Shown here: positions 1 through 60,687 of the stretch, one piece after another
Layout of the letters: every line of letters begins with the position of its first letter
Position numbering within the stretch: position 1 is the stretch's first letter
Origin: Giardia intestinalis
Taxonomy: Eukaryota
DNA: 64,000 bases
Assembly: GCA_000002435.2 (NCBI GenBank)
Contig: CM018789.1
Reading direction: 5' to 3' (one strand)
The notes under the pieces: generated by a model
Databases searched by the model: none
Told to the model about the DNA's origin: nothing
The model's input: the letters and a program-made list of their open reading frames with translations, nothing else
Program-made: the position numbers and the translations under genes

Positions 1-2
1 GT

Positions 3-1466
3 CCCTGTGTTGGCGAGGTTTTCGCCATAGATAATGACAGTGCATCTCCTCAGGATATCGACGTCAAGCTTGATGTTGTCAGGAGAGTCTTTAAAGCTCT
101 TCTTCCGGAGTTACCAATGGAGACCCGGCACGGAATAACGGATTATGCTCTAAAGATTCTGACCACGGCAGTAGCCGGCCTTAGTGCTATATCGAGGGTG
201 GTCGCCCTGCGTCTTCTCCTTCCAGCCATGCACGTTGTTCTAGACAAATATGTGGTGCTGGTACGGAAGTACGCATTGCAGTATGTTGAGCCACTTGTCC
301 ACGCTATTACTCTTGTCTTGTACCCCACACTTTCAGAAGCAGTTCTAACTAATGAGCTTCGCGTGGATGTTGTCAAGTTTGTCCTCTCCGTGGTCGCCAT
401 GCGTGCAGATAACTCTTGCTATCCCCTGTTATTTTCACAGTATGATCGACTTGAGACATGCGCCATCTATCTCTTGGCCGAGCTGGATCTGAAGATGCAA
501 GAGAAGTCTCTCGGAGGCGTCATCGAGCAATGCTGGTCTTGGTGCATGGAGTGCACCAGTAACTCCTTAACTGAGGACAACACCGGTGATGCACGCGCTA
601 CCAAATTCAATCTTTCGCTATTTGGTTCATTGTTTGAAAAGACATACACAGAAGCTGTCACAAGTATCCAGCTCACTTCTCCCCCTTCTGTCCCGCGGAT
701 GACAGCCTGCGCACATATCTTGGCTGTGCTTGGCGGTCAGGATCCTCAGCGCCTTGTTACAGGCGTCGGGAAGCTCTTGTATGAGGTCATCGGCACGTAT
801 CTTTTTGCCATCACGAGCCCACTGGGCTGCGTGCCGTATAGCTTAGATACTAAGACAATCGCGCAGTTGCTCGATACTAGGCAACGAGCGGTGGAGCTTT
901 CTAGTGCGCCCATGGGGATGTTCATAACATGTGGTCTCGAGTCCTCGGCGTCTATCAGTGGAATCGCAGAGGATAGCTTTTACGAAGTGTACTCTATGGG
1001 CCGCTACTTTAATCTCTTTCTCTTTGCATGCGGGCATGTTGTAGGAGCCCTGAGGGATGACGTGTACATTGCAGCGATAAGCTTTATGGTGGCAATTGTC
1101 TGCTCTGCCGTAGCACCTTGCAATGAGCTTAAGGACGTCGTTTACCCCTCCCTCAAAGTAGCACTACAGGCAGTGGAGGGGAACAACAATACCCCCATGC
1201 TTTGGGAATATCTCCATGACATGTCTATAACCCTGACGAAGAACTCTAACGATGCTTTTCGCCTCCGAGGGATTGAACTTTTGGAGGTATTTCTTTGTGT
1301 AGTACTTCCCCACGACACACATTGGTTGACGAGAGCTGCTGGTGTGATTGACGAGGCCATTGAAGACTTGCATGAAGGGGTCAGCGCAGCCGCCCAACAT
1401 CTAATTCGGTCTGTTGAGAGCGTAACGGGCAAATTGTATAGAGACCTGGTCAGTGCTGGGGTGTAA
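3..1466 (+). CDS. Hypothetical protein, 5'-partial (helical/ARM-like composition). The frame is open from the window edge.
   Basis: The frame of ORF 117..1466 has no stop codon back to nt 3, and the context upstream of the ATG at 117 is not AT-rich. The gene therefore probably starts upstream of the window. No family recognised. Confidence 0.5.
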   Translation, partial: PCVGEVFAIDNDSASPQDIDVKLDVVRRVFKALLPELPMETRHGITDYALKILTTAVAGLSAISRVVALRLLLPAMHVVLDKYVVLVRKYALQYVEPLVHAITLVLYPTLSEAVLTNELRVDVVKFVLSVVAMRADNSCYPLLFSQYDRLETCAIYLLAELDLKMQEKSLGGVIEQCWSWCMECTSNSLTEDNTGDARATKFNLSLFGSLFEKTYTEAVTSIQLTSPPSVPRMTACAHILAVLGGQDPQRLVTGVGKLLYEVIGTYLFAITSPLGCVPYSLDTKTIAQLLDTRQRAVELSSAPMGMFITCGLESSASISGIAEDSFYEVYSMGRYFNLFLFACGHVVGALRDDVYIAAISFMVAIVCSAVAPCNELKDVVYPSLKVALQAVEGNNNTPMLWEYLHDMSITLTKNSNDAFRLRGIELLEVFLCVVLPHDTHWLTRAAGVIDEAIEDLHEGVSAAAQHLIRSVESVTGKLYRDLVSAGV

Positions 1467-1618
1467 ATTGACATAAAAACGTGACTACCTCGACATCTCT
1501 GCAGCCCGAAGGGGCTTCGGCCGTGAGTGTTCCTGTGCTCAAAGAGATAGCTTCAAAGCTGGAGACGCTAAGGAGGACGTTGGAGAGGGTCACTGGTCCC
1601 TCAGACGTCAAGAAGAGG

Positions 1619-2962
1619 ATGAAGGACATTATCACGGAGACGCTGAATCTCGTCGACATATCCATTCGTGATAGTGATAATCATCCTGAAGGAGGAGTAG
1701 AAACAGCAGGCGCCTACCGCGTAGAAAGCGCTATCCAGGATGTTTTAGATAAAACCCTTGATCGGCTGATGCACGTTGAAAAACGAGCTAGTATAGCAGA
1801 AGCAGAGAATAACCTTATGAGGCAGGAGCATGAACGCCTTGCTGCGCACCAAAGGCAACAAGATAATCTTTTAGAAAACATTCAAAGGCTCTACCGGGAG
1901 GCACGCGACTGCTCAGACAGAAACGCTGCTTCAGCCAAGGAGTGGCGTGCCCGAGCCCATGAACTCGAGGCAGAGCTTGCTACGAAGAAAAGCATTTCTG
2001 GTGATCAGGAAAAAATCATGCAGAGACTCCGGGCTTTATACATTAGATATACAGAGCTAGCGGCTCGCATGAAAGAGCGGGACACTGAGCTCCGAACACA
2101 AGATGAACTCCACAAGGCTGAACTAATGACTCAGAAGAGCCTGGCAGCCGAACGGATCAAAACCCTGGAGCAGGAAATCTCAGCACTTAAGCGGCAAATA
2201 GAACTGCTAAAGAAGCTGGAGAGATCACCGGGAGGCTCGGTGTTGGACCGCCACGGTAATCATCTTCAGAGGCCTCAGACTCCACCGCTCTCGTTGGCTC
2301 GGGACCGTTCTCTTCGCGAGGACTCAGATCAGGGCGTCGGCACTATTTTTGTACGCAAACCTCTCCTGCAAGCAGAACAGCCGCAGCAATCAGATAGGAC
2401 CATAGGAAGCGGAAGCGTGGGGAGCAGCAGCGTTGTGGATGATATTGACTTACAAACTATACAGAAGATTCAAGAGACCATGGACAAACACTATCCTCAC
2501 AGCTATTCTCGCAAAAATACAGTCCATTCAGGGATACCATCATCATCTCAGCGGCTTAGACCGCATTCATCAGACCTATCTACACGACCCAAGATAAAGC
2601 CCAGTGGTTATCAAGCACAAGAGGATGGAGTGGCATACAGACCTAAGAAACACGCACGGAGCCTTCAAGAACAGTATGAGCGGCCAAAACACATTCAATC
2701 TTTATTAAAAAGCACATCTGTGTATGACCTGGTTGAGCCGAGCACCAATACCACTCGGGTATTTCCGTCGGAATCAAGCGTCCAGGAACAGGATTTAGGA
2801 TACACGAGAACATACGATAAATCCCCTGATATTCAGGAGAGTAGACTAGAGGATGAGACAGACCTGCAAAAAAGTAAGGCGCATTCTATTCTGACTGGCT
2901 TATTTCAGTATTTGAAGCAAACAGAAGAGCAAATGATGGCAACTGATACCAAGCAGGCATAA
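1619..2962 (+). CDS. Coiled-coil protein. First in-frame ATG is at 1619; the frame is open from about 1470.
   Basis: Long heptad-like E/K/R/L/Q-rich segments (LKRQIELLKKLE, LEQEISALK). The track start at 1481 is GTG. Region 1481..1618 is also coding-like in this frame; see the finding at 1440..1640. Confidence 0.5.
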   Translation: MKDIITETLNLVDISIRDSDNHPEGGVETAGAYRVESAIQDVLDKTLDRLMHVEKRASIAEAENNLMRQEHERLAAHQRQQDNLLENIQRLYREARDCSDRNAASAKEWRARAHELEAELATKKSISGDQEKIMQRLRALYIRYTELAARMKERDTELRTQDELHKAELMTQKSLAAERIKTLEQEISALKRQIELLKKLERSPGGSVLDRHGNHLQRPQTPPLSLARDRSLREDSDQGVGTIFVRKPLLQAEQPQQSDRTIGSGSVGSSSVVDDIDLQTIQKIQETMDKHYPHSYSRKNTVHSGIPSSSQRLRPHSSDLSTRPKIKPSGYQAQEDGVAYRPKKHARSLQEQYERPKHIQSLLKSTSVYDLVEPSTNTTRVFPSESSVQEQDLGYTRTYDKSPDIQESRLEDETDLQKSKAHSILTGLFQYLKQTEEQMMATDTKQA

Positions 2963-3740
2963 GGGCCTATCTTTCACACATTTGCCATCTTGAATACTAG
3001 CTTCGTGCATTGATGCAGAGTGGAACTGGGTTTGAGGCTAGTTAATGCTATCTTTAACAGCTGTACATGAATCATCGGTAATGAGACATGGCCCAGAGTC
3101 CGTGCTCATCTTCATGTTATCCTGATTAGGTCCTTCAGATGGTTTGAAATCTAACCTTGCGATTGGCGATGTTTTATGCATAGGTCGTGCGAGGGCATGC
3201 TACACTTAGTCGGGTGTTAGCCAACACTCCTATGGTACTATTTAGAAAACTAATTCATTACAGGATAAGCCTTCCATATGATGCCGCGGTAGTCATGATG
3301 GTAGGCGTAACTGAGGCGTACTGCATCGTTTTAAAAAGTACCAGTTGTGGGGCTGCTGAGTTGATGTATTTATTGTCTAGGTCATGCCCTCTATTGCCCC
3401 ACCGTGCCTTGTGGCTGGCTCGTGTGGCCCTCGGCATGTCCCTGCTGTGGAACGCACTTTTGGAGCCGACCACGCGCAGAGGACAGACCCCCCTACTCAG
3501 GCCCACGGTCTCCTGTCTTTGGCACTGAGCCCCAGCGCCACAGGGTTGCGGCGGGCTTCAGAAGCAAGGGTGACACCCGTAGCCGACGCAGAGCCTATGC
3601 GGTACATACCGTGAGCAGAGGAGAAAATGCAAAATGAGACTATGTTTGCTTGAACATATGAATATATAAATGAATCATATGCTCAATTATCAACTTAAAC
3701 CTATTCAATCTATAAGATATCTATCAATCTAACAAATGCA

Positions 3741-47647: not shown

Positions 47648-48610
47648 ATGCCAAAGCTTCTCACGCGCACGCATGTGCCTTTAGGCTCGTGCACCTCCAT
47701 GACGCCTATACAACCCTTTTATTCAGGAGTGTTAATAGGCACAAGTACTGGCCACTTATTTCTGATTACCTACGTTAAAGGAAGAGCGAGAGTAAGCACT
47801 CCGAAAGGGACTGTAGAAAGGAAGAGTCCAGTTGTTGAGCTTACCATTTGCAAAAACCAACTGGCGGTTATGCGCAACTCTGGGCTTCTACAGATTTATG
47901 AACTACGGCTGGATGAATCTAGTGCTTCACCATGCTGTTTGCAGCTTATCTGCGAACACTTTGTTGACGAATGCCCAAGGTTTAGGCCGCTGTTTCTAGA
48001 CACGGAAACACTGCTTGTTGTTCGCAATAGTGCCTTACACAACCTCTTAAACAAGGAGGAGCAGGTACTGCTGGGCTCTGGTACACTCCTTGGTATAGAA
48101 CAGCTGAGCACACATAGTACTCAGTTTGTTCTCTACGGGGATGGGCTTACATTATGGAAGTGGACGAGAACATGTCCTACTATTCAGTTACAAAGTTATC
48201 TACTAGACCTACACAGATATGCTGCAATTGAGACAGAAGTTACTCCATGTATAATGGATTTCTCTATCCATCAGGGGTTTGCCTTCTGTGCTACTAACAT
48301 GGGTCTATTACTATACTTTCCAGAACCGCAAATTTCAGAGCCCCTTACGGTAGATGGAAAAATTTATCCGATGGTTTATCCGACAATCTGCTTAACAACA
48401 CGAAGGCTTCTCTTTTGGGACAATCTAATAGTACCGTGTGGGGGACATGGTCTAGAACTTCTTTCACTTAAGGTATCTGAAAACACAACCCCCGATATAA
48501 CTGGGATAACCGTCATGACATTTGAAGATAGCTCTACATGTGGCGCTGTTTCTAGTGGACTGCTTTGGATATGCACTGGTGGAGCAGGGATATGCCTGCT
48601 AACAGATTAA
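47648..48610 (+). CDS. Hypothetical protein (320 aa).
   Basis: ATG at 47648. Its stop codon overlaps the stop of the convergent gene (TTAA). Confidence 0.5.
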   Translation: MPKLLTRTHVPLGSCTSMTPIQPFYSGVLIGTSTGHLFLITYVKGRARVSTPKGTVERKSPVVELTICKNQLAVMRNSGLLQIYELRLDESSASPCCLQLICEHFVDECPRFRPLFLDTETLLVVRNSALHNLLNKEEQVLLGSGTLLGIEQLSTHSTQFVLYGDGLTLWKWTRTCPTIQLQSYLLDLHRYAAIETEVTPCIMDFSIHQGFAFCATNMGLLLYFPEPQISEPLTVDGKIYPMVYPTICLTTRRLLFWDNLIVPCGGHGLELLSLKVSENTTPDITGITVMTFEDSSTCGAVSSGLLWICTGGAGICLLTD

Positions 48611-49965
48611 AAGTTGGTGACCAACTTGGAGAGGGCTGCTCTATTCATCACATTGAAATCTGTAGCCAGCTTTATAGCATATAGTGCCCACTCCCGAGCA
48701 CCCGGGCAACCAAAATCTCCCGAGCAGTGTATCACAATAGAAGGCAGGCCATCTAGAATTCGAAGCGTCTCCTGGCTTGCTGGACATGATGCTAACAGTT
48801 GTGCAATTATAGTAAGCAAGCCGCTCCTATAGCCCGGCCAAAATATTCCGTGTGAAACTATATCATCGCAACTAACGGAAATATTAAATCGTGCACCTTC
48901 GTTCAGTAATTCTTCAATGTGTTTTTCTTGATCCTTTATTATAAACCCTGTGAATCCGAATTGGCCCGACCTATTCGGCTGCATTCTGATTGCATGTTGA
49001 AGAAGGAAAATGCAAACACCCATACATCCAGCCTCTGTATACTCTTTTCGAGATATTGCATCGGTGAGATGTTCTGTAGAGAGGCGTATTATGTCTAAAA
49101 GCGACAGAAGTGTCTGAAAGCTATCATAAGAAGCTAGACCTAAACATCCACTACTCTGGCGAACAACTTGCTCCAGAAAGTCTCTGCATTCGAGTAAATA
49201 ATCTACGGCTTCAGTATCTATCAAAGGGCCGGCCTCCATGGTAGAGTTGACATTCAGGCGTCCATTGAGTAGGGAGACAAGTGAATCGGTACCGGCTGCT
49301 CCTAGATGATTGATGTCCTCCTTCCCTTGCATATCAAACCCTGGAACATATGGTATTCCGATTTCCTTTCCAGCCGGAAACGATACTCTTGAGTAGAGTG
49401 TCGAGACACCAAGGATGGTGCAACAACTTTCAACTAACCGGCGTATGACAGAGCTTGAAAGGGCAGACGTGGAGGCAACTGTTGACAAAAGATCCATGGT
49501 CACCTGGTCGATGGGGAGATCTGAGACATCGCAGAAGCATGCATGGCTGGTCACCAGACGTTCGACAACAAGAAGGGCAACCCGGCCACAGCGCGACTCC
49601 TGGTCGGCGGCTGCCAACAGATACCTGTGTGCCTCTGCAAATAGCATAGATAGCATCTTACCAGATGCAGGAACAGGAATGGGCGAGGAGACTGGAGCCG
49701 CGGGGGTGGGGGTGGCCACCTGCAGCAGAAGGCCGAGCACGAAGACGAGGGCCTCACGTCCATCGGCGTTGAGCCGCGGGAAGGCCTGGTCCAGGGCGGC
49801 GAGGAGGGAGGGGCACGCGCGGACACTCGCGCAAGCGGGGGGCGGCCCGCCCTCCAGGACGCGGCCCAGACGGCGCAGCCCGCGGGTCAGGTCCTCGGGG
49901 GCGGCGAGCCCGCGGACAAACGCGGCGGGGTCGTCGAGGCCCCCGCAGCCGACCGGCTTGGTCAT
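48607..49965 (-). CDS. Ataxin-10-like protein (Atx10 homology/association domain). The start is uncertain.
   Basis: C-terminal ...CPGAREWALYAIKLATDFNVMNRAALSKL resembles the conserved ataxin-10 C-terminal motif (..REWAVFAIRNL.EDN..NQ..IA.L). The track start at 50118 is GTG and would run through a same-strand tRNA. The first ATG downstream of the tRNA is at 49965, 14 nt after the tRNA 3' end. An alternative ATG lies at about 49656. Confidence 0.5.
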   Translation of the reverse strand: MTKPVGCGGLDDPAAFVRGLAAPEDLTRGLRRLGRVLEGGPPPACASVRACPSLLAALDQAFPRLNADGREALVFVLGLLLQVATPTPAAPVSSPIPVPASGKMLSMLFAEAHRYLLAAADQESRCGRVALLVVERLVTSHACFCDVSDLPIDQVTMDLLSTVASTSALSSSVIRRLVESCCTILGVSTLYSRVSFPAGKEIGIPYVPGFDMQGKEDINHLGAAGTDSLVSLLNGRLNVNSTMEAGPLIDTEAVDYLLECRDFLEQVVRQSSGCLGLASYDSFQTLLSLLDIIRLSTEHLTDAISRKEYTEAGCMGVCIFLLQHAIRMQPNRSGQFGFTGFIIKDQEKHIEELLNEGARFNISVSCDDIVSHGIFWPGYRSGLLTIIAQLLASCPASQETLRILDGLPSIVIHCSGDFGCPGAREWALYAIKLATDFNVMNRAALSKLVTNF

Positions 49966-51076
49966 TGGGTCGGAAACGTGCAACCTGTGGGGCTCGAACC
50001 CACGCGGGATGACTCCCATTACGGCCTTAACGTAACGCCTTAACCACTCGGCCAAAGTTGCGCGCCAGCGGCAGTCCATGATAGACCCGTTTTCAAGGGT
50101 CTTTGGTATTGGTTCCACAAATCAATGTTAGACTGCATCGCCCGCCACAGAGGATGCGCGCGTAGGAGTCGCATACTTCACTTACAAGCAGCATAGGGCT
50201 GGCTAGCGTGCGACACACGGTTTGCTCGTCGAAGCGGACTGGACTCCTAGCTGAGCGCTGTGCTGGCGAAAGAAACACAGAGTTTCATGTCGTAAAACAA
50301 GGGTGGTTGTGAGGTAGTTACCTCTACCGAACGCTGGCCAGAGCCGTTGCTAGCGTTTTCACCAAAGGCCGCAATAACGCGCCGATCCGGCCGTTAGGCA
50401 GCGGGAGGAACCACGGTCCCCAGGGATATGCTAGCAGCACAAGAACCGTGCAAGAATTGAGCGTGGACATGCACGAGTTCTTTTACTGCGGAAGTGGACT
50501 GTATGCCGAGGCTTGTGCGATCATCAGCCTTTTGGTGCCAAGCCCTACTAAGTAGAAATGAGCTGCTGTATCAGGATAACAGGGTTCACTACAAGATAGG
50601 TAGGTGGCCAGACAGCGCAGCCCCTAAGCCCTTGCAAAGCTGGTTCTACAGGTCGATCTGGAGCTAAGGTTGCGCAACGACCGCAGTCTTGCGGGTCACG
50701 GCGAACTGGCACGTGAGCCCTCGAGATCCGCGAGCCATACGTCGTGTAGCTCCGCCAGCCCTCTTCTTCTAGAATAAGTAGGAGTTCCTGAGAAGCTTCG
50801 CTCCATGGGCAATAATAGAAGGCCTGCTTCCTAAGGATCGCGGTCCATATATCTCCGCATAGAAGACCTGAACAAGCCGAGTGGCGTCCTGTAGCGTCAA
50901 GGATAGCCTCAGCGTGGGACTTGGCCCAGGACTTTGCAGGCGCGTACTCTATGCAGCCACGTGCCGCTTTAGCGAGGTTCTGTCTTACTCGTCCGATTTC
51001 GGGCCTCCCCAGATGAAACCCCAGGAAGCAGTGGCGCATGCGCCGCGCCGGCGGGGCTCTGGTCACGGTGTGCTGT
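49780..51076. repeat. Arm A of a near-identical 1297-bp inverted duplication (partner at 53990..55286).
   Basis: The reverse complement of this arm matches arm B base-for-base wherever I compared. Three ORF translations are identical between arms. Boundaries were found by hand where the sequences diverge (outer GGACCAGGCCTTC| ; inner |CAGCACACCGTGACC). Confidence 0.8.
49979..50061 (-). tRNA. tRNA-Leu, anticodon AAG (class II, long variable arm).
   Basis: Folded by hand. Acceptor stem GCAACTT/AGGTTGC (7 bp, one G-U). D-loop GAGTGGTTAA. Anticodon stem TTACG/CGTAA with loop TTAAGGC. 15-nt variable arm forming a GGGA/TCCC hairpin. T-stem GTGGG/CCCAC with loop TTCGAGC. Discriminator A. Total 83 nt. 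Confidence 0.8.
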
Positions 51077-51943
51077 CAGTTTGACGCAGGTTGCACGGTC
51101 CACTTTCCGAAAAATGGAGCGTTATGAGCTGTTGTTTATTGCATAACTATAGCGTAAAATTGAACGGGTTATCTAGAGCCCGAGGTAGCTCTCTGGTCGC
51201 ATAACTAGAAAGCTTCATATCTGGACGGATCCAGCCCTTGAGAGCATTGTAGGACAGGGCCGATTTGAATGGATAAGAAGCTGTGAGGCAATTTCTCGTT
51301 TAGTGAAGTCACAATCAGACTGTTTAAAGAGCAATATTATACTACGCTTGACTGCAATTTTATGAGGGACTCAAGCTCTTAGATGTCCCTATCTTCACTT
51401 GCATGGCAATAGGCAGACCACTAGCCCATTTTTACATAGTTCTACTAATAAGGTCCCACATCATCATACGCACATGCGGTGGAGTATTCGTTCTAAGAGC
51501 CACGGTAACAGTTCACTGCTATTTTTATATACTAAGATTGTTACATTTACTTCCCGCTCAGCGAGACTATAGCATCGAAGCTTGGTATATCGAACCACTT
51601 TGCATTTTTCAACATAATAACAATATCTGATCAAAAGCACCACAATCAACAAGATACTGGCTTCATATATGAATAGCGCAGGGATGTAACACTGATGTGC
51701 ACTAACGGGCAAAACTAACATTGATAGTGAATTATTGCCTATTAAAACGAAAATCCATTAGATTTTTGTGCCTTTACCTCGTGGACTTTGATAGATGGTA
51801 TCACTGGACTGTCGTATCTTATAAATTCAGATGCCAGAATCCTAGTAAGTTAAAATACGTCCATTTACTAATAGTATTCTATCTCATAAAAATTACAATT
51901 CTTCTTATATGTGTGTTATCAAATGAGATATCAATTTCGCTAA

Positions 51944-53455
51944 ATGCTGATTTCTATAGTGCTCTCCATAGCATCAGCATGCAGCATGGAAACGCCTTTC
52001 ACTGAGGAGCCCAGTCATGGGATGGGTGTACGCTTCACTCAGCGTGGATTGGAAAAATTTTGCCAGAAAGGTTATGCCCTTATTCCTGATATCATCTCTG
52101 CAATGCCTTCACTTCAGGTCCCAGAAGTAACTGTTGGACCTCTCAAGTTTACTTTGTCAAATGTCAAACCTCGCGCAGCGCGCGTCTCGACTATGAAGGT
52201 TCATTTGCAGGACAACAACTTTGTCAAGATGGAGGCCCGGGACGGACTCATGCAGATCTCGATGCGGCTCAAGGCAGTCATCACCGGGATCACCGGGACC
52301 GTCGACTGCATCTTCACCCTCAAGGATTTCGGGGCAGACATCTCCCTGAGGCTCGGGGATGACTCCACCTGTCCCTACCACTTTGGGCTCTCCGAGATAT
52401 CAAATGTCGTGTACTCGTCTGGGTTTGACATCGATGCCATCGGACTTGACACGGGGGGATCTGTCCTTGCAACTGCCATCCAGGGCATGGCGCCCACGTT
52501 GGAGGATTTGATGAAGAACACTGTGCTGCAGTCCCTCCTGGACACAATCTTCAATTCAGTAAAACAGTCAATGCTTAACCTGCTCACAGTTGTCCAGATC
52601 GACGACTATCTGACTGACCAGCGCTACATCAACGGCATCAATGTCGTCGATAACAAGATAGTGGCAGACCAGGGTGGCTTTTCAATGATCATCACTGTCC
52701 CAGATTGGTCGGTTAGAGCTCTCTATCCAAACAAGATCACCTCTCCCCCTCCGAAGACGGTCTACACCGACCGAGACTATGAGTTCTATGTAGACAGGGA
52801 ATCAGTTAACTCCTACCTGTATGCCTGGCATGTGGCGTATGACAAGTTCAAGGCAGATAGTCTCACTGTCCCGTACAGCACCATCAGGGGGCAGAACATA
52901 CCCGGCCTTGCAGAGGCCCTTGTGAAGGCCGGACTACTAAGCACTGTTAACGACCTTGGACTCGGAGTCACTCTGACTCTATCGATCAGTCCCTCCAAGG
53001 ATGCCGCACCCCACATACCGTGGATCGGGGCGGCTGCGCTACCGGTCAACCTCACGGGGGCACTTTCTGTAACGGCCAGTAAGGCTTCCACCTCTGCTTC
53101 TAAACTGTTGGTTAGTGCAGAAGGCAATGTGCTCTTTGTTTCTGCGCTTAAGCTTAGAAAGTTCGTTTATGGGTTTGGTCTTGACCAAGTCTATGCACAT
53201 ATAGAGTTTCTTGATGTGTACGAAATTGCTATCATCAAGAATAACGTTGGATCTATACATGACTTCATCCCTCTGTTAAAATTTCTGCTTCTAAATAAGT
53301 ACCTCCCATTTGCCAATCCAATCCTCACTGAAACAGGGATATGGCGTATGAATGGGAACTTTATTAGTTATGATGCCATCAGTACCATTTATTTATGCAA
53401 CGAAGATAGAGTGCTTTTTGCTACTGATGTAGAAAAGAACCAATACTTCGCTTGA
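51944..53455 (+). CDS. Secreted BPI/LBP/CETP-family lipid-binding protein (BPI-like).
   Basis: N-terminal signal peptide [14 protein letters not shown]. The N-domain is collinear with the BPI N-terminal barrel as I recall it ([22 protein letters not shown] ~ [39 protein letters not shown] ~ FDLSIEGMSISADLKLG). Length about 500 aa, as in BPI. The gene sits in an AT-rich spacer between the inverted arms. Confidence 0.6.
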   Translation: [503 protein letters not shown]

Positions 53456-53989
53456 ACGTTCATTCTACGACTTATTAGTATGCACATGGGTTGATATCAT
53501 GTCACTCGAGTAACTTTACTTGGCGAACAATCTGCTACCTTTAGTCACAACATAGAATAGTAAATGTTAGTATCTCTCAATCCAGATGTAATTTGTAGCA
53601 ACAGTATTTAAAGATCAGTGATGCGTTATCCAACTTTGTAATTGAATGCAGAGCAACCCTGTTGTTCAAATAACAAGTGTAAAGTTAGTCTGAAAAACAG
53701 ATGCAAGTTCTTTTAATAAAGTATTTGCTTTCACTACTCATCGTTCAACTAGTGTCTTAACAACAGAAGCAGTTTTTTAGTTAGATATCTTTATTGAATA
53801 CTATTTAAATTCTAAAATCCTTTTAGCATCGATAAGATAAGGGCGAGACCGTGCTAAGATATGTAGTCTTTATTTTGTATAGTGAGTAATCCGCCGCAAT
53901 CAGCTATTTCTTCGTTGAGTGCAGCAGAATCTATCTGATAACAAAGCAAACAAACACCTTTATACAGTAAGACTACAGCGGCAGCGCAA

Positions 53990-55286
53990 ACAGCACACCG
54001 TGACCAGAGCCCCGCCGGCGCGGCGCATGCGCCACTGCTTCCTGGGGTTTCATCTGGGGAGGCCCGAAATCGGACGAGTAAGACAGAACCTCGCTAAAGC
54101 GGCACGTGGCTGCATAGAGTACGCGCCTGCAAAGTCCTGGGCCAAGTCCCACGCTGAGGCTATCCTTGACGCTACAGGACGCCACTCGGCTTGTTCAGGT
54201 CTTCTATGCGGAGATATATGGACCGCGATCCTTAGGAAGCAGGCCTTCTATTATTGCCCATGGAGCGAAGCTTCTCAGGAACTCCTACTTATTCTAGAAG
54301 AAGAGGGCTGGCGGAGCTACACGACGTATGGCTCGCGGATCTCGAGGGCTCACGTGCCAGTTCGCCGTGACCCGCAAGACTGCGGTCGTTGCGCAACCTT
54401 AGCTCCAGATCGACCTGTAGAACCAGCTTTGCAAGGGCTTAGGGGCTGCGCTGTCTGGCCACCTACCTATCTTGTAGTGAACCCTGTTATCCTGATACAG
54501 CAGCTCATTTCTACTTAGTAGGGCTTGGCACCAAAAGGCTGATGATCGCACAAGCCTCGGCATACAGTCCACTTCCGCAGTAAAAGAACTCGTGCATGTC
54601 CACGCTCAATTCTTGCACGGTTCTTGTGCTGCTAGCATATCCCTGGGGACCGTGGTTCCTCCCGCTGCCTAACGGCCGGATCGGCGCGTTATTGCGGCCT
54701 TTGGTGAAAACGCTAGCAACGGCTCTGGCCAGCGTTCGGTAGAGGTAACTACCTCACAACCACCCTTGTTTTACGACATGAAACTCTGTGTTTCTTTCGC
54801 CAGCACAGCGCTCAGCTAGGAGTCCAGTCCGCTTCGACGAGCAAACCGTGTGTCGCACGCTAGCCAGCCCTATGCTGCTTGTAAGTGAAGTATGCGACTC
54901 CTACGCGCGCATCCTCTGTGGCGGGCGATGCAGTCTAACATTGATTTGTGGAACCAATACCAAAGACCCTTGAAAACGGGTCTATCATGGACTGCCGCTG
55001 GCGCGCAACTTTGGCCGAGTGGTTAAGGCGTTACGTTAAGGCCGTAATGGGAGTCATCCCGCGTGGGTTCGAGCCCCACAGGTTGCACGTTTCCGACCCA
55101 ATGACCAAGCCGGTCGGCTGCGGGGGCCTCGACGACCCCGCCGCGTTTGTCCGCGGGCTCGCCGCCCCCGAGGACCTGACCCGCGGGCTGCGCCGTCTGG
55201 GCCGCGTCCTGGAGGGCGGGCCGCCCCCCGCTTGCGCGAGTGTCCGCGCGTGCCCCTCCCTCCTCGCCGCCCTGGACCAGGCCTTC
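53990..55286. repeat. Arm B of the inverted duplication (partner at 49780..51076).
   Basis: See arm A. The translated ORFs are identical (MFLSPAQRSARSP...; ...TRAPPARRMRHCF...; MEPIPKTLENGS...LDQAF) and diverge exactly at the arm ends. Confidence 0.8.
55005..55087 (+). tRNA. tRNA-Leu, anticodon AAG (second copy, in arm B).
   Basis: Same 83-nt sequence as 49979..50061 on the opposite strand: GCAACTTTGGCCGAGTGGTTAAGGCGTTACGTTAAGGCCGTAATGGGAGTCATCCCGCGTGGGTTCGAGCCCCACAGGTTGCA. Confidence 0.8.
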
Positions 55287-55519
55287 TACTGCTCTGCCTG
55301 CGTGGTGGGTGTCCCCAGGCAACTGTCCTCCCCGTCTCCGTCGCTGACACTGCCTGCCCCTCTCTGCGCTACGATCCGGCCTCCTCCCTCCTCTATGTCC
55401 TGGCCCCCACGACTGATGTAGGAGTCGTTCTGTGCTGCGTCTGCTTCCAGGAGCCCGCAACTCTGGACCCGGCGCTACGGGGGTTCGAGTGGTTCACTCA
55501 GACCGGCACGGAGTTTTAC

Positions 55520-56038
55520 ATGTCCCGGGTTGTTGTCTCGAGTCCCGAGGAGCATCTCTCGTACCGCTGCAAAGAGGGTCCTGAGCTTGCAGAGGCGCAG
55601 GTCGGGGCCGTCTGCATGTGTGGCACCTCGGCTGTCGTCGCCGTGTCGGCCGTTTCCGAGACCGGCGAGCGCTCCGATCTGCCGGTCCTCCTGGTCGTCT
55701 CCGGCCTGCTGTCGCATCTCTCGTTCTCCACGATAGAACTCGATGACTTCGGGGCCCAGAACCTACCCCCGGAGTCAGAGTCGTTCCGCATCTTCTCTCT
55801 GTCCCCATCCTCGGCTGCCCCGGGAAGCCTCTGTCTGGCCTTCTGCAAGGGAAGCCTCCTCCACTTCCACAGGATGCCCGTGGAGAGCGGCACAGACAGC
55901 CCCCGCTCTGTCGGCACATGCGAGCTGGCCCCTTCGACACACACGTTCTGCGCCCTGTACGAGACAGAAGGGGCCCTGCGGTGCGTCTTCACGGCCGTGG
56001 ATGGAGCGCGCCTGTTCCTCTGCATGGCGAGTACGTAG
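55520..56038 (+). CDS. Possible GC3-rich coding segment of unknown function. Start unresolved; may be a 5'-truncated gene remnant.
   Basis: In a 65% GC block this frame alone has protein-like composition and a strong G/C third-position bias (gtc tcc ggc ctg tcg ttc ...). The other five frames give R/P/G-rich noise. The frame is open from 55232 (TTG). The first ATG is at 55520 without an AT-rich promoter. Confidence 0.3.
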   Translation: MSRVVVSSPEEHLSYRCKEGPELAEAQVGAVCMCGTSAVVAVSAVSETGERSDLPVLLVVSGLLSHLSFSTIELDDFGAQNLPPESESFRIFSLSPSSAAPGSLCLAFCKGSLLHFHRMPVESGTDSPRSVGTCELAPSTHTFCALYETEGALRCVFTAVDGARLFLCMAST

Positions 56039-56458: not shown

Positions 56459-58357
56459 TTACGCCTTCCCGCGGCAGATGAACCACCAGCAAAGGAAGCC
56501 CACGAGGCCTCCGACGACGACGATGACAGCAACAGAGATGCCGGCTATGGCCCCAGTGGAGAGACCACTCTTGTTTGTACTACCACCGGCGTTGTTATCG
56601 TTACCACCATCGTTAGTGCCATCTGTCTTGACGTAGCAGGTGACAGGACCACTATTACCAGTTGGAGGGGCACAGCTTATACAATTTGGGACACCAACAA
56701 TATGGCTACCATCATTGGGATCATTGGTGTCGCACTTCACACATTTTGCTCCGGCAAGATAGTATCCCGGAAGGCACGTTTTGCATGCCTCCTTGTTTGC
56801 TACCTCACATGTTTTACAACCAGATGCACATGCTGGACAAGATCCAGTGCTAGCTTCTGGTTGTTGTCCATTAGCACAATTCGTACATTTTCCATTCTGA
56901 GCATTGCTACATAGGTTGCTGCCTGGGTATGCAGCCGACTGATAGCATCCGCCAGATTGCAAGAAGTATGTGGTTGTACACGCTTTGCATGTTCCATCAT
57001 TGTTATCATTTGGCGTGCATCCAGTTACTGCCCTTGTCGTTGTCGACACACAGACGCCGTCCACTGGGACGTATCCGGCCTTGCACTTGCTGCAGTACTT
57101 CGAGCCCCCAACGACGGCCGTGCACTGGCCAGCCTCGCAGTTCTCTGCGTACCTTCCCGTGCACTCTGGGATGCATGTGCCGGTGGCTCCAGTATTGCTT
57201 TTACTCAATACAAGCCCAGGATAACAAGCTGTACAGGAGGCTTCACTATCACCATCACATTCTGCACAAGAATTATGGCAATTAGTACATATCCCGCTGA
57301 CATCACGAGTTCCTGCAGGACAGCCCTCCATACACATGTTCTTTAAGGGGTTTAGGCTTTTACCTCCAGTACACTCTTCACACATATTCTCTTCATTACA
57401 CTTTATACAATCCTGTATATCACATAGTACACACTTCGTTCCGTCGGCGTTGGGTTGATTAGTACCTGCTATACAAGCAGAGCACGTGATGAGAATTGTA
57501 CCTTCAGGATTATCCTTCAGAGCACACGTTTTGCAGTCTGCTATCCCTTCTGAGCATTTCTTACACATTTTTCCATTAGTAGGATCGTCAGCATCATCAG
57601 TGAAGTGGGAGTTATCATTACATCCACTTTTATCAATACATGTATTAGAGTCCTCGGTTTCGCCCTTTTTTAGATATGGCTTGTTAGCGGTTGCCTTGCA
57701 CTTCGTGCATTTTCCTGCTCCACCATCGCATTTAGCACAGTTATCCCTATCAGTACACGCTGTACACGTACTTCCAGCATTACCAAGATTTGTACCGAAA
57801 AATCCCTCTAGACACGTTTTGCATATAGCAACATCTGAGCTAGGAGGATCACATGTCGCACAGCCCTCCAAGCCTTTCTTGCCTCCAACTCCAGTTGCAT
57901 CATTGCATGCAATACAAGAGTCCTTATTGTTAGCTGCACTTGGGTTTTTAAAATAGCCAACTACGCAACCCTCACAAACGCCAGGAGTTGTTGATGACAC
58001 ACGACTAGCAGCTGCGGCATCAGCGCAAATAAAGCGTCCAACGTCCCCGCCAATTGCATAGCATCCGTTCTTATGGAGGAAGTATCCTTGAGCGCATTGG
58101 GTGCACGTTCCGTCAGCTGCTCGGGCTTTGAGCTGGCATCCACTGGCGCCTGCCTCTGCCTTACACCCTCCATCAACGAGGTACTCGTCAGTCTTAGCGC
58201 ACTGCGAGCAATACTTCTTGCCGTTGATCCACACGTCGCATTTGCTTGTCAAGCACTTTCCTGCTTGGCCTTCCCCTGCCTCCGTGCACGTCTCTGCCTC
58301 CGGCGCTGCCCAAGCCAATTGCAAAACAAATCCCGCAACGATCAATCTACAGAACAT
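56459..58357 (-). CDS. VSP: Variant-specific surface protein (VSP).
   Basis: Signal peptide MFCRLIVAGFVLQLAWA. About 12% Cys with many CXXC motifs. GGCY motif (SGGCYQSAAYPG). C-terminal TM (AIAGISVAVIVVVGGLVGFLCWWFI) followed by the invariant CRGKA-stop. Confidence 0.92.
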   Translation of the reverse strand: MFCRLIVAGFVLQLAWAAPEAETCTEAGEGQAGKCLTSKCDVWINGKKYCSQCAKTDEYLVDGGCKAEAGASGCQLKARAADGTCTQCAQGYFLHKNGCYAIGGDVGRFICADAAAASRVSSTTPGVCEGCVVGYFKNPSAANNKDSCIACNDATGVGGKKGLEGCATCDPPSSDVAICKTCLEGFFGTNLGNAGSTCTACTDRDNCAKCDGGAGKCTKCKATANKPYLKKGETEDSNTCIDKSGCNDNSHFTDDADDPTNGKMCKKCSEGIADCKTCALKDNPEGTILITCSACIAGTNQPNADGTKCVLCDIQDCIKCNEENMCEECTGGKSLNPLKNMCMEGCPAGTRDVSGICTNCHNSCAECDGDSEASCTACYPGLVLSKSNTGATGTCIPECTGRYAENCEAGQCTAVVGGSKYCSKCKAGYVPVDGVCVSTTTRAVTGCTPNDNNDGTCKACTTTYFLQSGGCYQSAAYPGSNLCSNAQNGKCTNCANGQQPEASTGSCPACASGCKTCEVANKEACKTCLPGYYLAGAKCVKCDTNDPNDGSHIVGVPNCISCAPPTGNSGPVTCYVKTDGTNDGGNDNNAGGSTNKSGLSTGAIAGISVAVIVVVGGLVGFLCWWFICRGKA

Positions 58358-58782: not shown

Positions 58783-60687
58783 ATGGACTTTGATCAGGCA
58801 CAACAGATACCGTCAGCAGTGGGGCCTGTTGGCATTCTGTCAGTCGAGCAGTACACAAGCCTCATTGAGTCTTATACATCAGTCTTAAACCCCCATGACG
58901 GAACACTTGTGTCAACGTGTCCGTCCATTAAAGTCCTTTCTCTACGGATCGAGGATACGAAGGTTCCAAACCCAAGGCTTTATTTCTGCATAGACAGCGA
59001 TGTGGAGGGCGTTCGCCAGACGACACTGGCTTTGCATTTAGAAACGCTGCAGAACCTCTGGAGGGCATTAAAAACGGTCTTCCACAAGACAATGGTGGCC
59101 GTACCGATTCTTCCACCCGAGATATCATCGAAGTCCTACTTAAGCTCTCGGTTTATGCGGGGCATTGTCCTTTACCTCGCAGCTCTCCTTCGGCGCTTAC
59201 TATCGCACTCTATCATCAAGCGCCACGAAGTAATGGTGCAGCTATTCACCCGCCACGAAAGCGATGTCTTGCCGATGCTCCAGAAGCTTGCAAATCCAGA
59301 TTTTACACAAGGGCATGCACCAGGGGACGACATCATTAGAAATATAGTAAGTCGGGCACACGGGCATCTCCATAGTAATTTGCACGAGTCTGGCTTAATG
59401 CTTGCCCTCAATCTATCATTACTCTACAACTTTTCCTTGGACGACGCCGCGTTCCTCAAGACAGCCTACTACGGACCCAATTTTGCAAAGCTGATAACAG
59501 ACCGCACAATCACCAAGAGCGCTCTAGCAACCTTTAGAGGGAAAACACGGATTAATGCTGCGTATCTTCAGTCTATTGACCAAGTCTTAGATATGCCAAG
59601 GGGCCAATTCCTCAATACGTTTCTTTATGGACTAATTGATCTAGAGGATTTTCTGTCGCCGAATTTCGGTAAAAAGATCCGCGGGATTTTCCTCAAGCGT
59701 CATCTTATCATAGAGGAGAACCTCAAATCAGCTTATGACAGCGTCAAGCGTCTCTCTGCTTCGGTTGCCGAAATAATAACTGCTGAAACAAGTATTTCAT
59801 CCTCAATGTCAGGACTTGCAGATTCTCTTACCTTTTTATTTGTGTCAGAGACGAAATTTGATGGCGTCCTGGCCGGCCCCGCAACAAACTCAGTGGCGGC
59901 ATGTGTCAATCCACCAACCCAGTCAGACTTCCTCCATACTCAGATAGCTAACCAGTTGCGTGCAGACGTCTATCCACGCTTGGCTGCTTCGTTGGATATC
60001 ATCTCTGCAATGGCTAAGATGGCTACAATGCGCTATGACTACATAATAGTTGGAGAATTTCTCGCTTCTATCCTGAAAAAGAAGGCCAGCGATATTATTT
60101 ACCTAAAGGTCCAGCAGGAGACTATCGGCGATGTTGTACTAATTAACAAAGATGCTGTAAAGAGACAAATAGATGCCATACGCGCATCCGATCTGCATAC
60201 CTTTTCATATGGGATATATAAAGACACCGAAAGAGAGTCTCCCCTGTCCTTGAGTCTTGCTTATGAAAGTGACAAGTCAGAGCTAGAGGGTATTTTAAAT
60301 GCAATAGACGATGAAGCAACGGTTTCCTTTAACAGCTTATGCTCGAGGCTGTCCTTGTCTAGAGCCCAAATAGACTTGTTAGATTCTTTCAGACGCGTTC
60401 ATGCAGCATTTATTGAGCATATCATGTATTCAATTGTTATGGAGTCAAGATTCGTGTATGAGTATCTCTTTTACAAGTGTATGGTATCAGAGTTAATCGT
60501 GCACTCTATGGGCCGCTTATCAGCGATTTTCGGCAGAACGATCCATTTAGAGTCTAACCTGTGGGAGTATTCCGATGAATGGATCAGAAAGACTCGCGGG
60601 CAAGAGACACCATGGCACAAGATAAATGAACTAGACAACGAGCGCTACGAGTTGGAGGTTGACCTGCACAAAGAGCAGGGTCAGTGA
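58783..60687 (+). CDS. Hypothetical protein (634 aa).
   Basis: ATG at 58783 after gcaaaaaattttaaatctcgagagtca. It is transcribed divergently from the VSP across a 425-bp intergenic region. No family recognised. Confidence 0.55.
   Translation: MDFDQAQQIPSAVGPVGILSVEQYTSLIESYTSVLNPHDGTLVSTCPSIKVLSLRIEDTKVPNPRLYFCIDSDVEGVRQTTLALHLETLQNLWRALKTVFHKTMVAVPILPPEISSKSYLSSRFMRGIVLYLAALLRRLLSHSIIKRHEVMVQLFTRHESDVLPMLQKLANPDFTQGHAPGDDIIRNIVSRAHGHLHSNLHESGLMLALNLSLLYNFSLDDAAFLKTAYYGPNFAKLITDRTITKSALATFRGKTRINAAYLQSIDQVLDMPRGQFLNTFLYGLIDLEDFLSPNFGKKIRGIFLKRHLIIEENLKSAYDSVKRLSASVAEIITAETSISSSMSGLADSLTFLFVSETKFDGVLAGPATNSVAACVNPPTQSDFLHTQIANQLRADVYPRLAASLDIISAMAKMATMRYDYIIVGEFLASILKKKASDIIYLKVQQETIGDVVLINKDAVKRQIDAIRASDLHTFSYGIYKDTERESPLSLSLAYESDKSELEGILNAIDDEATVSFNSLCSRLSLSRAQIDLLDSFRRVHAAFIEHIMYSIVMESRFVYEYLFYKCMVSELIVHSMGRLSAIFGRTIHLESNLWEYSDEWIRKTRGQETPWHKINELDNERYELEVDLHKEQGQ

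Follow-up and report, generated by a model that had tools for sequence, protein, structure and literature searches.

A BPI-like protein gene of Giardia intestinalis lies alone in the spacer of a tRNA-bearing inverted repeat that evolves in concert

We analyzed a 64,000-nt stretch of DNA (hereafter the window), which belongs to chromosome 1 of Giardia duodenalis (intestinalis) WB, and focused on positions 51077..53989, which hold one gene for a BPI-like protein. The reading that best joins our results, to which we assign a probability of about 85%, is that this gene is the published BPI-like (BPIL) gene GL50803_113165 and encodes a lipid-binding protein of the TULIP superfamily, that it stands alone in the spacer of an old palindrome whose arms are kept alike by gene conversion, and that its high diversity arises from conversion between paralogs. 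The gene and its BPI-like nature were already published in 2015, and the locus is not a new kind of system. Our additions are modest points on genome dynamics, together with a functional hypothesis, to an otherwise ordinary finding.

The open reading frame (ORF) of 503 amino acids (aa) that a preliminary description of this DNA had reported is present at 51944..53455 on the plus strand. It starts with ATG and matches the NCBI entry 'hypothetical protein GL50803_00113165' at 100% identity. The cloning primers of Ankarklev et al. 2015 (BMC Genomics 16:697; PMC4570179) are located at 51844-51867 and 53435-53454 of the window, and the coding sequence (CDS) is further supported by a BPI/CETP fold model (see below). 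In that paper GL50803_113165 is one of the eight WB 'BPIL' genes (GL50803_16293, 102575, 112938, 112914, 112630, 113165, 111973 and 113130), which agrees with the earlier remark that BPI-like genes occur in Giardia. The same study gave the BPIL proteins signal peptides, modelled them with a boomerang shape, reported expression of the genes in trophozoites, localised 3xHA-tagged BPIL proteins to the endoplasmic reticulum (ER), and placed the genes in variable regions alongside VSPs, HCMPs and NEKs. Furthermore, GL50803_113165 was listed there within the 30 most diverse assemblage A genes (diversity 0.0347, chromosome 1). BPI-like proteins are also known from Spironucleus, Trepomonas (40 copies), G. 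muris and retortamonads.

The BPI-like identity proposed earlier, which is already in print, is supported by fold comparison and by an indirect link to Pfam family PF01273. Direct sequence searches did not find it. A Pfam scan of GL50803_113165 gave no match to PF01273 or PF02886, the two families suggested in the preliminary description as a check, and scans of the 23 aligned relatives gave no direct match to either family even at E<=1. These 23 were the only relatives in an exhaustive BPIL profile search of 1.84 billion representative proteins. Searches of the PDB sequences with phmmer and with the family profile returned no BPI match, and HHalign of the BPIL family against a single human BPI sequence, which was checked against 1bp1, gave a probability of 4.4%, so that the checks proposed earlier came out weak or negative. 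The alignment itself is collinear, placing residues 25-233 opposite BPI 3-206 and including the motif noticed earlier, as had been claimed for the N-terminal barrel. In this low-confidence alignment the invariant Cys143 stands opposite BPI Cys135, and a Leu stands opposite BPI Cys175, the disulfide partner of Cys135 in the BPI structure. Since sequence methods alone do not establish the family, structure comparison and the transitive Pfam link were needed.

The AlphaFold2 model, built on the 23-sequence alignment (predicted local distance difference test score, pLDDT, 70.5; predicted template modelling score, pTM, 0.60), shows two tandem helix-wrapped beta-barrels in a boomerang, the arrangement that defines TULIP proteins. 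In a Foldseek search of the PDB the predicted structure matched BPI (1EWF, E=9.8e-20; 1BP1, E=3e-19), LBP (4M4D, E=2.4e-17) and CETP (2OBD, E=3.4e-16), each over about 500 columns, and CETP gave the best template modelling (TM) score, 0.59, together with the lowest root-mean-square deviation (rmsd). The Pfam link runs through two distant relatives, P0051 and P0053, which the BPIL profile matches with E=7e-5 and E=3e-4 and which score 35.2 and 29.7 bits against PF01273, both passing its gathering score of 28.8; three further distant relatives match PF01273 below the threshold. This family, the N-terminal domain of LBP/BPI/CETP, is connected only in this transitive way, and only to the N-terminal barrel. 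PF02886, the C-terminal domain, gave no match either directly or via the intermediates.

A signal peptide is predicted at residues 1-14 (51944..51985, plus strand), with cleavage after A12 or S14. The clean signal peptide claimed earlier is borne out by a mean Kyte-Doolittle hydropathy of 2.42 over residues 2-13, followed by the AXA-type site A-S-A|C-S, and the hydrophobic N-terminus is kept across 23 BPIL family members. A scan of the 503-aa sequence found no second transmembrane-like segment and no KDEL. The word 'secreted' in the earlier claim goes beyond the evidence, as the published site of the tagged protein is the ER. Cys13 (51980..51982 of the window), Cys40 and Cys143 are invariant in all 23 family members. 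Cys13 ends the signal peptide in the pattern A-x-A|C, for which distant members have L-Y-G|C. The pattern loosely resembles a bacterial lipobox, but Cys13 may just be the first mature residue (+1), engaged in a disulfide.

The gene is unusually divergent between isolates. From WB to DH the ORF differs by 4.97%, versus 1.65% in the adjacent core, and the differences are patchy, ranging from 0 to 13 per 100 nt. By the Nei-Gojobori method the synonymous rate (dS) between WB and DH is 0.147, versus 0.03-0.09 in six neighbour genes, with a non-synonymous rate (dN) of 0.024 and dN/dS of 0.17. Within nt 751-1050, 9 of the 12 states derived in DH match the DH paralog DH_152144; over approximately nt 801-1100 this paralog and the DH gene have 94-98% identity. 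Of the two P15 BPIL proteins, GLP15_712 shows 100% identity to GLP15_2725 over aa 1-100, and the identity drops to 46-48% over aa 401-500. These patchy, paralog-matching tracts, together with the low dN/dS, indicate that the high diversity is due to conversion between BPIL paralogs under overall purifying selection.

Two other views of the protein have to be weighed here. The divergence could instead reflect diversifying (positive) selection by host or microbiota pressure, for which the place of the gene within the 30 most diverse assemblage A genes and its higher WB-DH divergence than the adjacent core would speak; we regard this as unlikely, since the excess is mainly synonymous and the differences are clustered in tracts that share their derived states with paralogs. 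The diversity of the gene is thus explained by paralog conversion under purifying selection and not by an arms race. The protein could also be a true analogue of neutrophil BPI, a secreted effector that binds lipopolysaccharide (LPS) and permeabilises the membranes of Gram-negative gut bacteria. The cationic surface of BPI underlies its LPS binding and killing. The strongly cationic N-terminal domain characteristic of BPI and LBP is absent from GL50803_113165, whose N-domain has an isoelectric point (pI) of 4.9 and a net charge of -7, versus a pI of 9.7 and a charge of +14 in human BPI; the BPIL family ranges from -10 to +2, with no member above +2. The tagged protein was found in the ER and neither at the cell surface nor in the medium, CETP and not BPI has the top TM-score and the lowest rmsd, and the G. 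muris genome paper (2020) states that antimicrobial activity 'remains to be determined'. All of this makes a BPI-type effector a rather doubtful proposition, though one that keeps a small share of our belief. We consider lipid binding or transfer along the ER and the secretory route more likely than cationic, LPS-directed killing, because the N-terminal barrel is acidic and because CETP gives the best global superposition. The acidic barrel thereby argues against the often-repeated idea of Gram-negative killing and points to lipid uptake or transfer in a lipid-auxotrophic parasite. As a mechanism, a soluble protein of about 490 residues would enter the ER via its short N-terminal signal peptide and fold into the two-barrel boomerang architecture of BPI/LBP/CETP (TULIP) proteins, where apolar pockets or a tunnel in the barrels may hold lipid acyl chains or sterol esters. 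It would then bind or shuttle lipids in the ER lumen and secretory route, possibly also extracellularly, with an activity presumably nearer to that of CETP or PLTP than to that of BPI, because the N-barrel is acidic and has no cationic LPS surface.

The gene lies between two inverted arms. The left arm (49780..51076; 1297 nt; GC 0.597) is 100% complementary to the right arm (53990..55286; 1297 nt), whose inner junction is independently present in the DH and P15 draft assemblies and whose outer junction is present in that of DH. Each arm carries a tRNA-Leu(AAG) gene, detected with both ARAGORN and Rfam: the left-arm copy lies at 49978..50061 on the minus strand (RF00005, 54.5 bits, E=6e-10; conserved in DH and P15), and the right-arm copy at 55005..55088 on the plus strand. 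Codons 1-62 of GL50803_16641, the neighbouring gene with an ataxin-10 domain (48607..49965, minus strand; 452 aa; exact match to KAE8301796.1; Pfam PF09759; orthologs of 452 and 453 aa), also fall inside the left arm. The right arm correspondingly ends in a duplicated 5' fragment of this gene (62 codons; 55101..55286, plus strand), which mirrors 49780-49965 and diverges past 55286. The rest of each arm is about 1 kb of GC-rich DNA, which we consider non-coding because it is only 55-70% identical between WB and P15 and contains indels. A 172-aa ORF in this part (50548..51066) was rejected as a gene on the same grounds, and it appears only among unnamed automatic calls. The left tRNA copy lies 12 nt upstream of the true start of GL50803_16641, so the listed 503-aa ORF with a GTG start is an over-extension through the tRNA. 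The preliminary description mentioned neither the tRNA genes in the arms nor the truncated gene outside the right arm.

The genomic context was drawn from DH, P15, assemblage B and metagenome contigs. The arms evolve in concert. Between the two DH arms there are 4 differences over 496 inner sites and 1 over 487 outer sites, and over the same sites they show 16 inner and 6 outer differences from WB. In P15 the arms match each other at 100% across the 353 nt that could be compared, and they are about 71% identical to the WB arms. WB and P15 have the inner arm boundary at one homologous position, and a 5-nt indel is common to both P15 arms and missing from both WB arms. The arms are therefore closer within a lineage than between lineages (WB, DH and P15) and share an ancestral boundary, as is typical of palindromes maintained by gene conversion, from which it follows that the repeat already existed before assemblages A and E separated and that conversion from arm to arm homogenises it. 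The GC content of the non-coding arm DNA (50062..51076 and 53990..55004) is about 60% in WB and 57% in P15, although no other part of the locus is less conserved. High GC kept without sequence conservation is compatible with GC-biased gene conversion, and such a bias may explain why GC-rich arms lie beside AT-rich spacer flanks.

The stretch from 51077 to 53989 is exactly the 2913-nt spacer between the arms, just as the preliminary description had placed it. The ORF is flanked on the left by 867 nt (51077..51943; GC 0.386) and on the right by 534 nt (53456..53989; GC 0.348), the lowest-GC stretches of the whole window, whose mean GC is 0.48 (standard deviation about 0.045). The gene itself has a GC content of 0.49, and 0.57 at third codon positions (GC3). 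Nine short intergenic gaps of the window have a mean GC of 0.404 (range 0.326-0.48). The flank GC falls inside the intergenic range, so their composition is ordinary and what stands out is their length, versus a typical 55-300 nt between genes. The 'AT-rich island' of the earlier claim is hence correct for the flanks and not for the gene; likewise, the gene is indeed alone between two long flanks, but these are extended intergenic DNA of the ordinary type and not a compositional island. That no other gene is convincing here was confirmed: the longest flank ORFs are <=94 aa, Rfam gave no match in the flanks at E<=1, and the accessions KAE8301796 (ataxin-10-like) and KAE8301798 (VSP) differ by two, leaving room for one annotated CDS. 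ORFs of the flanks and arms appear only as unnamed automatic calls on short-read contigs. The left flank is 62-81% identical to P15 overall and 75-85% identical in the proximal 300 nt or so, and the P15 contig L002 has an orthologous AT-rich right flank (GC 0.374). Since the published construct begins at 51844 and expressed the tagged protein, the last 100 nt of the left flank are enough as a promoter. We also considered long AT-rich flanks or inverted repeats as a general trait of BPIL genes and rejected this, because at two paralog loci (L018 and L019) the gaps are GC-rich and repeats are absent. An assemblage B BPIL paralog likewise sits at an unrelated locus without such a repeat or long AT-rich flanks.

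Three further explanations concern the repeat. A perfect match over 1297 nt could come from a mis-join or over-polishing in the WB reference assembly; however, independent contigs run from the right flank into the arm in DH (L001) and P15 (L002) and from the arm into the neighbouring gene X (see below) in DH (L009), and an artefact is hardly credible. Alternatively, the sharp contrast in composition, the surrounding inverted repeats and the single gene inside might suggest a foreign or mobile cassette, recently acquired by transposition or horizontal transfer, whose terminal inverted repeats would be the arms. This is very improbable: the GC and GC3 of the gene are normal, its family is found throughout Giardia and in other fornicates, the flank composition is that of normal intergenic DNA, and the flanks and arm boundary are orthologous in assemblage E. 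Moreover, the arms consist of host DNA (the tRNA gene and the 5' end of GL50803_16641) and not of transposase ends, no transposase-like ORF is present, and the arm-spacer-arm unit is so far absent from unrelated sites and genomes. The repeat might finally act as an invertible switch, in which recombination between the arms flips the spacer and so controls expression of the BPIL gene or of a neighbour. Perfect inverted homology of 1.3 kb is ample for recombination, and the concerted evolution indicates that the arms do recombine. Nevertheless, the 100-nt promoter piece that suffices for expression lies in the spacer and would flip with the gene, flipping between identical arms alters no junction sequence, and the WB, DH and P15 assemblies share one orientation, with the left flank on the ataxin-side arm; a switch is accordingly quite improbable.

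Several points weigh against the reading of a TULIP lipid binder in an old, conversion-kept palindrome. On the protein side, the direct Pfam scans and HHalign miss BPI, the predicted fold is of moderate confidence with an rmsd of 4-9 Å to BPI and CETP, and the C-terminal barrel is placed by structure comparison, with no sequence link of its own. The role in lipid binding or transfer is read from the predicted fold, an acidic surface is still compatible with binding of LPS or other bacterial lipids by another mode, and ER staining of a C-terminally tagged protein fits a resident and a cargo in transit alike. On the side of the repeat, the bias of conversion toward GC is something that we infer and that may not apply, and the evidence from DH and P15 comes from draft assemblies, in which reads of the two arms could have merged. 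In P15, furthermore, a second BPIL gene, GLP15_712 (L003 6496..8007), sits beside the left arm at the syntenic position, where no right arm follows downstream, and the closer ortholog, GLP15_2725 (L002 144..1655), lies on a 2.5-kb contig adjoining the inverted arm. As judged from these draft contigs, the WB structure could stem from a deletion between two direct BPIL copies. A more far-reaching scenario combines an ancient palindrome, whose tRNA-bearing arms have been converted since before the A/E split and driven by GC bias to about 60% GC versus 35-39% in the flanks, with reshuffling of the BPIL gene and its paralogs and an acidic, CETP-like lipid scavenger or transfer protein. We offer it tentatively, as a whole that is possible but has the odds against it. 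If true, the locus would offer a compact natural means of following mitotic recombination and biased gene conversion in Giardia.

The outer end of the right arm is a rearranged border. A 7-nt microhomology, GGCCTTC (55280..55286), occurs both in the ataxin-10-like CDS and in the intact copy of a neighbouring gene, here called gene X, as seen in L007 and P15. At this point the ataxin-10-like fragment is fused to gene X near its codon 166, and DH has the same arm/gene X junction (L009). This suggests microhomology-mediated joining or template switching as the inverted copy formed; in our reading the right arm was joined into gene X and truncated it. The 5'-truncated remnant with a premature stop spans 55287..56038 on the plus strand and is 85% identical to P15 and about 90% identical to the intact 448-aa ORFs in two metagenome-derived AII-like contigs, L007 (1473..2819) and L017 (495..1841). 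Where WB reads CMAST followed by a stop, other copies read CMAS[TV]Q and continue. Gene X is also found at L008 1..~1070, runs upstream of the WB breakpoint in P15, and has intact homologs at 57% and 47% identity; with a GC content of 64%, its block is 85% conserved from WB to P15. No NCBI protein covers the WB remnant, and the gene is unnamed in every reference annotation searched. Compared over positions 1..3300 with L017 and L009, contig L007 is 100% L017-like where it carries the intact gene X and turns 100% DH-like at the VSP side and onward, and it may be an assembly chimera across the duplicated segment or a real structural variant without the right arm.

Beyond gene X, a VSP gene at 56459..58357 on the minus strand (Pfam PF03302, E=2e-86; NCBI 'VSP' KAE8301798.1) starts the variable region. 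The BPIL gene is thus located where a conserved core block meets a VSP-containing variable block, at a border that has been rearranged; the repeat marks this core/variable breakpoint, and a conserved, unannotated gene is truncated there in WB and DH. Farther along, the hypothetical gene GL50803_7343 (58783..60687, plus strand) has a Herpes_UL55 Pfam match of 25.3 bits against a cutoff of 25, which is probably spurious.

Searches of the published literature on the gene, on BPIL proteins and on Giardia inverted repeats or gene conversion uncovered no earlier report of the repeat, nor any account of a concerted tRNA-bearing palindrome, a microhomology junction truncating gene X, an acidic N-domain or conversion-driven diversity. 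Literature searches likewise turned up no measurements of lipid binding by these proteins. The portions of the main text and supplements of PMC4570179 that were available to us likewise make no mention of an inverted repeat, tRNA copies, a truncated neighbour, an acidic N-domain or conversion tracts. A repeat with a conserved boundary that evolves in concert across assemblages is direct evidence, at the level of sequence, that homologous recombination recurs within the chromosomes of Giardia. Giardia is not known to have a sexual cycle.

Compared with known systems, the gene itself does not differ from the Giardia BPIL family: the ORF is a published member with the same 503 aa, signal peptide, boomerang shape, ER location, diversity and VSP-adjacent variable region. 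Human BPI (1EWF/1BP1) and LBP (4M4D) share 13% identity with the Giardia protein, which has no Pfam match; their N-domains are strongly basic whereas that of the Giardia protein is acidic, the residue opposite BPI Cys175 is not a Cys, and the Giardia protein was seen in the ER and not in granules or as a secreted protein. The plasma lipid-transfer proteins CETP (2OBD) and PLTP, which also belong to this superfamily, share 10-12% identity with the Giardia protein, and lipoprotein partners like theirs are not known in Giardia. As for the repeat, plastid inverted repeats are kept uniform by gene conversion. The same holds for mammalian and willow sex-chromosome palindromes, which are kept uniform by arm-to-arm gene conversion (PMC7023750). 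The Giardia repeat resembles both in having inverted, near-identical arms around a unique spacer and in being identical within a lineage and divergent between lineages. In contrast to the known palindromes it is far smaller, with 1.3-kb arms and a 2.9-kb spacer, and its arms carry a tRNA gene and a gene fragment instead of whole amplified genes.

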